64,000 nucleotides of DNA. It comes from a virus. The stretch lies in the UHGV virus genome UHGV-0109738. The stretch is one strand, 5' to 3'. Under the pieces are notes generated by a model. It was not told the DNA's origin, did no database searches, and saw nothing but the letters and a program-made list of their open reading frames with translations. Of the stretch, positions 6,890 through 8,241 are shown one piece after another. Position numbers and translations under genes: made by a program. Within the stretch, counting starts at the first letter, position 1; the number at the start of each line of letters is the position of its first letter.

Positions 6890-7655
6890 CGCTCATCGCC
6901 TCCTGACGCTATCAGACAACGCATTTTACCAGAACACTACCACTTACCGCATTCGACTTTAACCTGACCCATGTTCGTTGATAGCTCTGGATATATATTC
7001 AACCCAAAAGCATTGACCTTATGGATAACATCACAATATCTGAAACTGATAACTCAGATTATAACATCTGTGATTTTATAGTTTCTTCACTCATTTGTGT
7101 GAGTTCTGAAACCAAGCGAATATAAGTATTTTTCAACCTATCTTTATCGCAACGACTTACAGACTCCGATAACAGATAATGGCTATAATTATTGACATAA
7201 ATATCATTGTCATTTTCAATGAGTGAGTTTTATTCCATGTTCAGTATCTTCTACTTTGTTTACAATACAGATCATAAATGGTGTTTTCTCATAGGGATGA
7301 AAGAGTGTTATCATTTTAATATTTTTCATTTTATTTTTTACTTTTTTATTACTATTTAATACAACATCGCGATCGTGAAAATCAAATTTATTTATTTTTT
7401 AACCATGATTTTCCCTCTTATTTTTAAACTACTTTTGAAAAAATCTTTATCTCTGTGCTGACGCACGGCTACGCCCTGACGCTGACATTTTTATTTTATT
7501 CATCTCCTGTCTGTTAAATAAAAAGAAAAGCACTCGATCATTGTTTGATCTCTTTTCCTCATGATGCTGAATTTAGATCCTATGTTTAAACATAGTTTTT
7601 CCCTTTAGACATATAGCATTTGCTCTTAAACGTATAGGAAAACTACATCCTTGGT

Positions 7656-7700
7656 AGCAGCGCTTCGTGATTGTTGCGAACAATCACTCTGCTGAACAGG
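7656..7700. repeat. ~45-nt hairpin-containing repeat, copy 1
   Basis: gtagcagcgcttcgtgattgttgcgaacaatcactctgctg contains a 9-bp perfect stem (gtgattgtt / aacaatcac); a second hairpin acagggcttgcccctgt follows immediately. Confidence 0.4.
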
Positions 7701-7789
7701 GCTTGCCCCTGTTAATATTGGATTTATCCAAAAAAGATCGCGTCGTAGACGCATATAAAGTTAAAGTAAAATTAATCAAGCAGTCCCGA

Positions 7790-7835
7790 TAGTAGCAGCG
7801 GTTCATGATTGTAGAAAACAATCACTTCGCTGTAA
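7790..7835. repeat. ~45-nt hairpin-containing repeat, copy 2
   Basis: gtagcagcggttcatgattgtagaaaacaatcacttcgctg; near-identical flanks to copy 1 with a diverged but still palindromic centre. Confidence 0.4.
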
Positions 7836-8241
7836 TAACATAGTAGGAAAAATAACACAGATAACACCACTGGTGCCATTTTGATAAGGCACCAATCAAC
7901 TAAAGAGAAGAACTATTTTCAATATTACATTCTTTAAAATGTCATCCAAAGCTTCGCTATTTGAATAATGAAGAAGAAAAATGCTCTCAAGCCAGCTATA
8001 GCTTAAAACAAAGTACGCACTCTTGGGAGTTAAAGTCCCGAATCCCGGTACTTAAGTTGATAACTATTCTCAAATAAAAATAATAAAGTGTTATTGTATA
8101 TATTCTGTAGCACTACAATTTTTATACGTAAAAACATCAAGTGTTAGTTATTTTAAAAAATATAAACTTTAAGTATTGACTTGCACACAAAATATAGTAT
8201 CTACTTAAATGTATAACTAAAAAAATAAAGGAGTAAATACC

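Follow-up and report, generated by a model that had tools for sequence, protein, structure and literature searches.

What function do two related hairpin repeats serve in the 1.3-kb interval between positions 6900 and 8241 of the virus genome UHGV-0109738? The stretch analyzed here comprises 64,000 nucleotides (nt) and is called the window; positions refer to it unless another locus is named. The original prediction had described the interval as an AT-rich spacer free of open reading frames (ORFs) and had suggested that its repeats mark small RNA gene(s), a degenerate recombination site or protein-binding sites rather than random spacer. As judged by sequence comparison, the repeats belong to a ~450-bp non-coding module that is conserved across the Enterobacterales in Enterobacteriaceae-associated ROD21-like (EARL) islands. 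Our preferred interpretation, which we hold tentatively and would put a little short of an even chance, is that the repeats are elements of a cis-acting, origin-type DNA hub (an origin of vegetative replication, oriV, and/or an origin of transfer, oriT), in which the hairpins would act as sequence-specific, structure-forming recognition sites.

The repeats and their island

The element is real. A repeat search located the two imperfect direct repeats with central palindromes at 7654-7694 (h1) and 7792-7832 (h2) on the plus strand; each measures 41 nt, with 83% identity between the two and a distance of 138 bp. A degenerate repeat pattern with up to three mismatches matched just these two copies in 64 kb (0.00 expected), and the core palindrome TGATTGT-N5-ACAATCA occurred twice, against 0.03 expected. 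Each copy folds into a bipartite hairpin with a 5-bp outer stem (CAGCG/TGCTG in h1), an asymmetric internal loop and an inner stem of 8-9 bp (GTGATTGTT/AACAATCAC in h1), and the fold z-scores range from -2.7 to -4.3 with RNA or DNA parameters on both strands. The second hairpin that had been noticed behind the first repeat was likewise recovered by folding: hairpin 1b, AACAGGG-CTTGC-CCCTGTT (ACAGGGCTTGCCCCTGT), directly follows h1 on the plus strand (7695-7713). The interval is AT-rich as described (GC 0.28-0.38) and contains no ORF longer than 50 aa between 6900 and 8241, but it is not gene-free over its full 1.3 kb: the minus strand at 7059-7329 holds the frameshifted remnant of a conserved gene for an 89-aa protein (RefSeq pseudogene C_RS30675), whose 37-aa N-terminal ORF at 7216-7329 matches the intact protein of strain YD786. 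This small ORF (MNNIKMITLFHP...) is frameshifted in Escherichia coli CFT073 and Nissle and intact in many other strains; the protein has no Pfam or NCBIfam match, and its homologues are the usual left neighbor of the module, flanking most related loci. Because 7059-7329 is a decayed gene, it forms the left boundary of the true non-coding stretch, which spans ~7330-8241 (~910 bp).

The 1,342-bp region is 100% identical to sequences of E. coli CFT073, Nissle 1917, ATCC 25922 and many further B2 strains, and in CFT073 it is located in the ~22-kb tcpC island at tRNA-Ser (serU). The order of this island is integrase, pilV, pilin, the divergent traD and mobQ, tcpC with other cargo, a lipoprotein gene and the region itself, followed by repL, DUF4756, an H-NS paralogue, small genes, alpA, DUF6387 and the tRNA. 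By its gene content, the tcpC/serU island is an EARL mobilizable genomic island. Hallmarks of EARL islands are a P4-like integrase, an AlpA-type excision factor (recombination directionality factor), a neighboring ~840-bp gene and integration at a tRNA (PMC6035254); the CFT073 island has a P4-like tyrosine integrase at its far end, and an AlpA-like helix-turn-helix gene together with DUF6387 (837 bp) adjoining tRNA-Ser. It also encodes a TraD homologue, a MobA/MobL (MOBQ) relaxase, a type IV pilin with a pilus protein and an H-NS homologue, without a type IV secretion system. The same gene set defines the EARL islands ROD21 of Salmonella and ICEKp258.2 of Klebsiella, and EARL islands are regarded as mobilizable elements (PMC6035254, PMC10763509); the CFT073 gene list agrees with the one for ICEKp258.2, down to DUF4756 and H-NS following a 235-aa hypothetical protein (PMC10763509). 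In this literature, the EARL oriT is named only as a presumed cognate site that is not located (PMC6035254), the rep gene appears only as a hypothetical protein (PMC10763509), and the module is not described in either paper; searches of the literature yielded nothing usable on the sequence strings of the module, nor transcription-start or small RNA maps of CFT073 or Nissle.

Conservation across the Enterobacterales

The module is strongly conserved. Diverged E. coli variants (72-93% identity) keep a ~900-bp non-coding region between the small ORF and rep, and this region contains patches that are nearly identical. A degenerate hairpin pattern retrieved 60 stretches from contigs representing one genome per species, of which ~55 are genuine, the sources being Pectobacterium, Dickeya, Brenneria, Serratia, Yersinia, Photorhabdus, Citrobacter, Klebsiella, Enterobacter, Salmonella arizonae and others, and a scan anchored outside the hairpin, on the sequence to its right, retrieved 113 metagenome stretches. 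The context of the module loci that we inspected was invariably an EARL-type island. Two metagenome-assembled genomes labeled Bacillota and Suipraeoptans (loci L016 and L057) carry typical enterobacterial EARL modules with RepL, and such labels from outside the Enterobacterales probably reflect binning contamination; five further stretches (L013, L017, L033, L042 and L066) are chance matches of the degenerate pattern in unrelated taxa, with apparently unrelated sequence.

An 86-nt unit of the module is present in 756 of 5,426 complete E. coli genomes (14%), on chromosomes only, at a median of one place and a maximum of six, and is never annotated. A plasmid collection gave four module matches, which appear to be island-bearing or misassigned, and a phage collection gave none. 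The module is thus island-specific and is not the common dispersed intergenic element that would have deprived the repeats of a local function; nor do two copies in the 64-kb window resemble the many scattered copies of repetitive extragenic palindromes or bacterial interspersed mosaic elements (REP/BIME), enterobacterial repetitive intergenic consensus (ERIC) sequences or miniature inverted-repeat transposable elements (MITEs).

In some genomes of several genera, for example that of Enterobacter adelaidei, two to three units of ~325 bp form tandem arrays, each unit holding the elements described below: a nick-like motif, a 38-nt block, h1, 1b, a conserved box and a further hairpin, hpT. Arrays of this kind were seen at L056 4217-5073 and also in L011, L012, L029, L044, L059 and L062. 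The extra units are of a distinct short type, with only ~35 nt from ATGAGC-N4-GCTCAT and GGCT(T/A/C)CGCCC to the block, and they are not recent duplicates. Tandem units are less typical of simple promoters than of origin, incompatibility or partition loci. A compact island at tRNA-Arg or tRNA-Thr also carries the module, in the order tRNA, P4-like integrase, alpA, two small ORFs, truncated H-NS, module and a divergent RepL-like gene; here, the module has neither the block nor h2. The module is therefore common to more than one island architecture. In the compact islands (L040 2500-5930; also L047, L049 and L054), H-NS consists of the N-terminal domain only and the RepL-like gene encodes 272 aa.

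Sequence constraint and pairing of the hairpins

The stems pair, and the arms of the repeats are constrained in sequence. In a covariation set of 40 sequences that are less than 90% identical to one another, 97.4% of the cells of the named structure are paired and seven pairs change on both sides; none of 500 shuffles reached the observed covariation. In the inner stem of h1, seven of the eight pairs never vary, while the 7-nt center is hypervariable, and a scan performed without any hairpin constraint returned the same pattern of nearly invariant arms (GTGATTG/CAATCAC) around a free center. Since seven of eight pairs are invariant around a free center, this pattern indicates that the stem sequence itself is read and points to a recognition of sequence, not of structure alone. 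The claim that the interval is not random spacer is borne out by the strong purifying selection on the repeats across genera, and invariant arms with a free center fit specific recognition sites.

The two neighboring hairpins behave differently. In 1b, three pairs are changed on both sides, and alternative stems GGAG/CTCC, AACAGGA/TCCTGTT and AATAGGG/CCCTATT occur; three pairs are likewise changed in hpT (GCGTC-GTA-GACGC; 7740-7752, plus strand), with the stems GCGTC/GACGC, GCGGC/GCCGC, TCGGC/GCCGA, GTGGC/GCCAC and ACGTC/GACGT. With such compensatory changes, only structure is conserved in 1b and hpT. The arms of h1 and h2 also pair: one inner-stem pair changes from G-C to A-T in the mobQ-proximal copies, the loop-closing pair switches from T-A to C-G in some copies, one outer-stem pair alternates between A-T and G-C, and the internal loop, with 4 nt facing 2-3 nt, has an asymmetry that is at odds with a symmetric duplex site. 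Pairing is supported in the same way for a short hairpin at the left of the module, IR2, the stem of which survives a 26-nt insertion that enlarges its loop. One-sided changes in 1b and hpT, counted on fixed-register stems because RNAfold cannot pair A.C, gave plus-strand G.T in 17 distinct variants versus A.C in 5; this is a modest indication that the plus strand, the same strand as that of the nick-like motif, may be the folded one.

Linkage to the replication gene

The module is linked to rep genes. At rep-adjacent loci with enough flanking DNA, a RepL-family gene has its 5' end next to the module, and both orientations occur; this gene usually lies to the right of the module and, in the compact island type, to the left. 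In the window, it is repL (8242-8823, plus strand; RefSeq annotation; Pfam RepL, E = 1.2e-5). The Rep proteins found next to the module belong to at least four types that are 15-34% identical, each type has its own iterons near its own promoter, and the module is unchanged across them, such that rep and its iterons behave as a cassette that can be exchanged while the module on its left stays constant. A hairpin detected by folding on the plus strand, TGGTGCC-N10-GGCACCA (7871-7894), marks the boundary with the rep-specific cassette and is present downstream of h2 only in cassettes of the RepL(CFT073) and Klebsiella types. The Klebsiella-type cassette (L006 5400-5520) encodes a 233-aa winged-helix Rep with different repeats upstream (TTTCC-N-GGAAAC motifs).

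Several features agree with an oriV: the adjoining RepL-family gene, an AT-rich stretch with a GC content of 0.28-0.37 and a conserved DnaA-box-like sequence. The last of these, TTATCCAAA (7724-7732), lies within the conserved box TGGATTTATCCAAAA (7719-7733, plus strand; the other strand reads GGATAAATCC), agrees with the DnaA box TTATCCACA at eight of nine positions and is kept in nearly all copies after h1; its role as a DnaA site is putative. On the minus strand, the box at 7719-7733 is TGGATAAATCCA, the GATAAAT of which is shared with the reported high-affinity H-NS nucleation motif, TCGATAAATT.

Linkage to transfer genes and resemblance to a MOBQ oriT

The module is also linked to the mobilization gene. 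MobQ is a relaxase of the NES/MobA type with a TraD partner, and in several islands a unit consisting of h1, 1b and the box occupies the far end of the divergent intergenic region, ~650-700 bp upstream of mobQ. At the left of the module itself, IR2 (GTGC-TGAC-GCAC; 7455-7466, plus strand) lies immediately 5' of the nick-like motif GGCTACGCCCT (7467-7477, plus strand), which resembles the MOBQ nick core (GCG/CCCT), is nearly invariant across genera and is the sole motif of its kind in the 25-kb island stretch L001. The IR2 stem is essentially invariant and its 4-nt loop variable. As in an oriT, GTGC-N4-GCAC thus stands directly before GGCTACGCCC, preceded in most other genera by a further hairpin, ATGAGC-N4-GCTCAT, upstream of IR2. 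The nick-like sequence GGCTACG/CCCT agrees with GCGCCCT at six of seven positions, and the distance from the repeat to the putative nick is 7 nt. The CGCCC 5-mer alone is expected ~0.3 times per 1.3 kb by chance (our estimate), so the argument from this motif rests on its conservation and not on its presence. The GGCTACGCCC motif and h1 are separated by 152-201 nt in most loci and by 65 nt in the compact type.

The oriTs of MOBQ elements (RSF1010/R1162, NES/pLW1043 and small E. coli MobQ plasmids such as p2PCN033) have the same layout, an inverted repeat followed 5-8 nt later by CG/CCCT on the nicked strand. In p2PCN033, ACAATC..GATTGT is followed by GTGCG/CCCT; in RSF1010, an inverted repeat with 10-bp arms is followed by TAAGTGCG/CCCT (sequence verified in IncQ plasmids), within which the oriT is nicked; and in the closest plasmid homologue of MobQ, an inverted repeat is followed by GTGCGCCCT, that is, GTGCG/CCCT. 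The version of the module would be GTGC-TGAC-GCAC followed by GGCTACG/CCCT, in an island with a relaxase of the same class.

Two other resemblances to transfer origins were considered and rejected. The flank of the hairpin, which on the minus strand reads ...ACAATCAC-TAAGTGCTGC and recalls the RSF1010 sequence, was dismissed as a nick region because its four internal-loop bases vary (CTTA, CTTC, CTGA, CTCC, CGTT...) and the remainder is paired in the outer stem. The likeness of the arms to the oriT repeat of p2PCN033 (GATTGT/ACAATC shared) is treated as a coincidence, since their order around the loop is reversed.

A proposed origin-type DNA hub

Family context, distribution, arm constraint, intrastrand pairing, strand bias, rep linkage, transfer linkage and tandem units are the reasons for which we favor an origin-type hub, spanning ~7430-7900 between the promoter of the leftward small gene and the promoter of repL. 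The DNA of the excised island would be processed there, through vegetative replication by the adjoining RepL-family initiator, conjugative mobilization by MobQ/TraD, or both. Under this model, the DNA of h1 and h2 would function in a folded state, whether as cruciforms or as hairpins formed when the plus strand is displaced, and a DNA-processing protein would recognize the sequence of their stems; this protein may be a component of the relaxosome, a primase or primosome factor, or a factor of the host. A precedent for such a hub is provided by ColE1, in which ori, primosome-assembly hairpins and the bom/nic site stand side by side.

A more specific version of the hub, which we consider unlikely, is that the module is a single-strand origin (sso) coupled to a relaxase nick site and would represent a new class of sso or single-strand initiation site (ssi) in Gram-negative integrative elements. 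The hairpin cluster (h1, 1b, the DnaA-box hairpin, hpT and h2) would then prime the complementary strand of the transferred or displaced plus strand, as a "landing pad" that is read by host factors, is independent of the neighboring RepL-type initiator and is present in EARL and short P4-like islands. Strand-specific hairpin clusters beside rep or the origin are known from the ssi/primosome hairpins of RSF1010 (ssiA/ssiB), R1/R100 (G-site) and ColE1 (rriA/rriB) and from the ABC-type DnaA-box hairpin, and conserved strand-specific hairpins in non-coding DNA near rep or the origin are a property of the sso of rolling-circle plasmids and ICEBs1. The RSF1010 ssi sites measure 40 nt, and h1 and h2 are two copies of 41 nt; the DnaA-box-like 9-mer between the module hairpins and the plus-strand pairing bias are further likenesses to ssi/primosome sites. 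Unlike ssi sites, the copies in the module are direct repeats and are not placed on opposite strands, and no RepB'-like primase was detectable for the module in Pfam and PDB sequence searches.

Several observations weigh against the hub. The hairpins cannot be Rep-specific iterons, because the module is conserved while the Rep proteins are 15-34% identical and each cassette has its own iterons; this candidate was rejected, and the co-variation with Rep type that repeats bound by a cognate Rep show in an iteron-type oriV was not found. GATC sites are no denser than in the window background. The plus-strand G.T bias, besides being modest, would be just as compatible with a plus-strand RNA. When the complementary-strand origin of phage G4 was retrieved, folded and compared by inspection, without alignment, the module showed no evident sequence similarity to this type of priming site; the G4 origin has three hairpins, and its CTG start triplet stands 3' of hairpin I, outside the stem, whereas the CTG of h1 and h2 is within the outer stem. 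No primase-like domain was detectable by Pfam and PDB sequence searches in the C-terminal part of MobQ, which was tried as a candidate RepB'-like primase. With respect to transfer, the nick-like core is ACGCCCT and not GCGCCCT, and the module does not adjoin relaxase or accessory genes, being 7.6 kb downstream of mobQ in CFT073 and ~3.7 kb in Klebsiella. It further differs from a MOBQ oriT in standing beside rep, in having the 38-nt block and four more hairpins, and in occurring as two to three tandem units, and its nick site is putative; nick sites that function in tandem should be prone to instability during transfer.

A better-placed oriT candidate, which also counts against the hub, lies ~120 bp upstream of mobQ, where a covarying hairpin is followed by the invariant GTGGGGTCTACCGACGG. 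This element is outside the window, at L001 3280-3345 (CFT073 NC_004431 ~2,201,057-2,201,122), roughly 80-150 bp upstream of mobQ; its stem variants include ACACTGC-TAC-GCAGTGT, ACACTCAC-TTCG-GTGAGCGT and GCATTA...TAATGC, a second GC hairpin follows GTGGGGTCTACCGACGG, and it is conserved across genera. Judging from its sequence, it looks like a classical relaxase nick region, with a putative nick at GTGGGGTCT/ACC, or else a 5' untranslated region element of mobQ; its GTGGGGT recalls the F-family nick sequence. The surrounding traD-mobQ intergenic region (L001 2781-3427; 650 bp, divergent) is highly conserved and has many GC-rich hairpins, for example CCCGCC-TTAC-GGCGGG and GCCC-TTAC-GGGC, and counterparts were found in L009, L010, L025, L034 and L041.

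Alternative explanations

Instead of folding, h1, h2 and the mobQ-proximal copy might be bound as duplex operators by a dimeric regulator of the island or host that controls the divergent rep, mob and leftward promoters, with a minus-strand promoter in h2 giving a ~70-nt transcript that would end at hpT and might serve as an antisense or regulatory RNA; we regard this as rather doubtful, yet as deserving serious consideration. Invariant half-sites with a free 7-nt center are a classic operator signature, as in the KorA/KorB operators of IncP plasmids, where one invariant palindrome with fixed half-sites and a free center is reused at promoter-proximal and promoter-distal positions, but the asymmetric internal loop between the arms of the module hairpins breaks the dyad symmetry of a duplex dimer site, their compensatory stem changes favor pairing, and, unlike KorA/KorB operators, they have an outer stem. 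All copies are intergenic between divergent genes (small ORF/rep, or pilin-traD/mobQ), and the spacing between h1 and h2 is held at 135-142 bp in most loci; no candidate regulator accompanies every copy, however, DUF4756 and the small ORF being missing from some hairpin-bearing islands. The promoter-like site in h2 (ATTACA, 17 nt, TACAAT; 7836-7808, minus strand, with the -10-like TACAAT at 7813-7808) is recurrent: in h2 copies, GTGATTGT is usually followed by A, so that the minus strand reads TACAAT, and inspection of three sequence groups showed a -35-like hexamer with CA at its end 16-17 nt upstream. In h1 and the mobQ-proximal copies, by contrast, the -10-like hexamer is GACAAT, AACAAT or GGCAAT. 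It is poor or destroyed outside h2, so promoter activity cannot be the shared function of the copies, and the idea of a minus-strand promoter in every hairpin copy was rejected. The supposed terminator of this transcript, the terminator-like hairpin hpT with the T-run at 7730-7739 that follows it on the minus strand (7753-7730 in total), keeps its T-rich tail in most lineages; hpT nevertheless persists where h2 is missing, in Yersinia and short-type islands, and its plus-strand G.T changes would be A.C mismatches in a minus-strand terminator.

A product made of RNA appears improbable in its other form as well, namely a structured plus-strand RNA that would start at the base of h1, include h1, 1b, hpT and h2, and either serve the rep operon as a long regulatory leader or function as a small RNA. 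It would draw on a weak promoter in the block (TTGCTC, 18 nt, TATATT in most lineages) and use the variable loops as specificity determinants, as in plasmid antisense control. Such an RNA would account for the covariation of 1b and hpT, for the 17 versus 5 one-sided changes that are G.U-compatible on the plus strand and for stem-loops resembling those of antisense RNAs (a bulged stem with a variable loop of 5-7 nt), and rep lies downstream on the same strand in most islands. Against this, the -10 of the block is degraded in the E. coli lineage (TATATC; CTACAT in CFT073), the promoter and terminator scan found no promoter-like site upstream of h1 and no plus-strand terminator after h1, 1b or hpT, rep has its own promoter and iterons near its start, short-type islands that lack the block keep h1, 1b and hpT without a plus-strand gene downstream, and an element under constraint only as RNA structure would not usually have invariant stems that lack covariation. 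As a main interpretation, small RNA gene(s) lack support: the covariance models of Rfam 15 matched no family in the whole window at gathering thresholds, the region giving only a chance snoRNA match (E = 1.6) at E<=10, and no same-strand sigma-70 promoter and intrinsic terminator enclose either hairpin on either strand, with no terminator meeting the scan criteria after h1 or h2. The sole promoter- and terminator-like pair is the minus-strand one, with the -10 TACAAT inside h2 and the terminator-like hairpin at 7753-7739; the ~70-nt transcript would begin inside the hairpin, so the RNA would not contain it. A bulged stem-loop with a variable loop upstream of rep and a candidate ~70-nt countertranscript with an intrinsic terminator do recall antisense control by CopA/CopT and by RNAI of IncI/IncB plasmids, from which the module differs in this start inside the hairpin, in a separate rep promoter 400 bp downstream and in being unchanged when the rep cassette is swapped, which is unexpected for a rep-specific antisense system. 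Finally, it is very hard to maintain that the repeats are a site-specific recombination site or its remnant (res, dif-like or att-like), or a decaying MITE/REP-like mobile repeat without local function. Imperfect palindromes with a short central spacer resemble recombinase core sites, and same-orientation copies flank the mobQ and cargo segment in some islands; yet there is no adjacent recombinase gene, the island ends hold the integrase and its att sites and not the repeats, which are strongly conserved instead of degenerate, and in complete E. coli genomes the repeats occupy about one locus per genome and never a plasmid, unlike dispersed repeats. To our knowledge, h1 and h2 show no resemblance to dif or cer cores.

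Further elements of the module and neighboring genes

To the left of IR2, a T/A-rich element, TTTTGAAAAAATCTTTATC (7433-7451, plus strand; beginning TTTTGAAAA...), lies just beside the nick-like site and is conserved in alignment A1 and in the upstream flanks of many genera. A GATC pair, GATCATTGTTTGATC, is found in an AT-rich stretch at 7536-7550 (strand not assigned), and a GATC pair with a spacing of 8-12 nt recurs at the equivalent position of diverged modules. The conserved palindrome CTATGTTTAAACATAG (7580-7595, strand not assigned) is present as a single copy within the CFT073 module, beside a different RepL from that of YD786 and Enterobacter adelaidei, in which four tandem copies with a 23-bp period stand directly upstream of a RepL-type gene encoding 245 aa; these arrays (L004 5480-5620 and L056 5625-5708) are likely iterons or operators of the adjoining 245-aa Rep. 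The 38-nt block, ATATAGCATTTGCTCTTAAACGTATAGGAAAACTACAT (7611-7648, plus strand), directly precedes h1 and is near-invariant in A1 and in most loci. CFT073 and Nissle have a private substitution in it, with CTACAT where almost all other sequences have CTATAT, and this change and the frameshifted small ORF hint that the CFT073 copy of the island may be decaying.

Upstream of the module, the cargo in the window is a cluster of Toll/interleukin-1 receptor (TIR)- and macro-domain genes, with tcpC, a second TIR gene and a macro-domain gene (1-808, 940-1449 and 1586-2422). In other island variants, this slot is occupied by SIR2+TIR, restriction enzyme or DUF262/DUF4238 genes, and the cargo slot between mobQ and the module looks like a defense/virulence hot spot. 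The H-NS paralogue of the island is encoded at 10451-10855. Past the island tRNA-Ser come mtfA, tRNA-Asn and the yersiniabactin High Pathogenicity Island with integrase, ybtS, ybtX and ybtQ (~13960-20240 and on); as this island comes right after tRNA-Ser, mtfA and tRNA-Asn, two tRNA-linked islands stand almost back to back in the window.

Implications

The island family itself is known, and the module is best filed as a putative origin or DNA-processing region. EARL islands carry virulence and defense cargo, including TcpC here, TlpA in Salmonella ROD21 and the cargo of ICEKp258.2 in Klebsiella pneumoniae ST258, and their cis-acting transfer and replication sites are undefined in the papers on the family (PMC6035254, PMC10763509). 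The ~450-bp module is a prime candidate for these sites and offers exact motifs that can be mutated; it is also a sequence marker with which such islands, including unannotated ones, can be found. If the module is a single-strand origin, it could explain how the island is established after mobilization, and if its hairpins are strand-specific priming or recognition sites that are independent of Rep type, they would represent a new kind of origin element.

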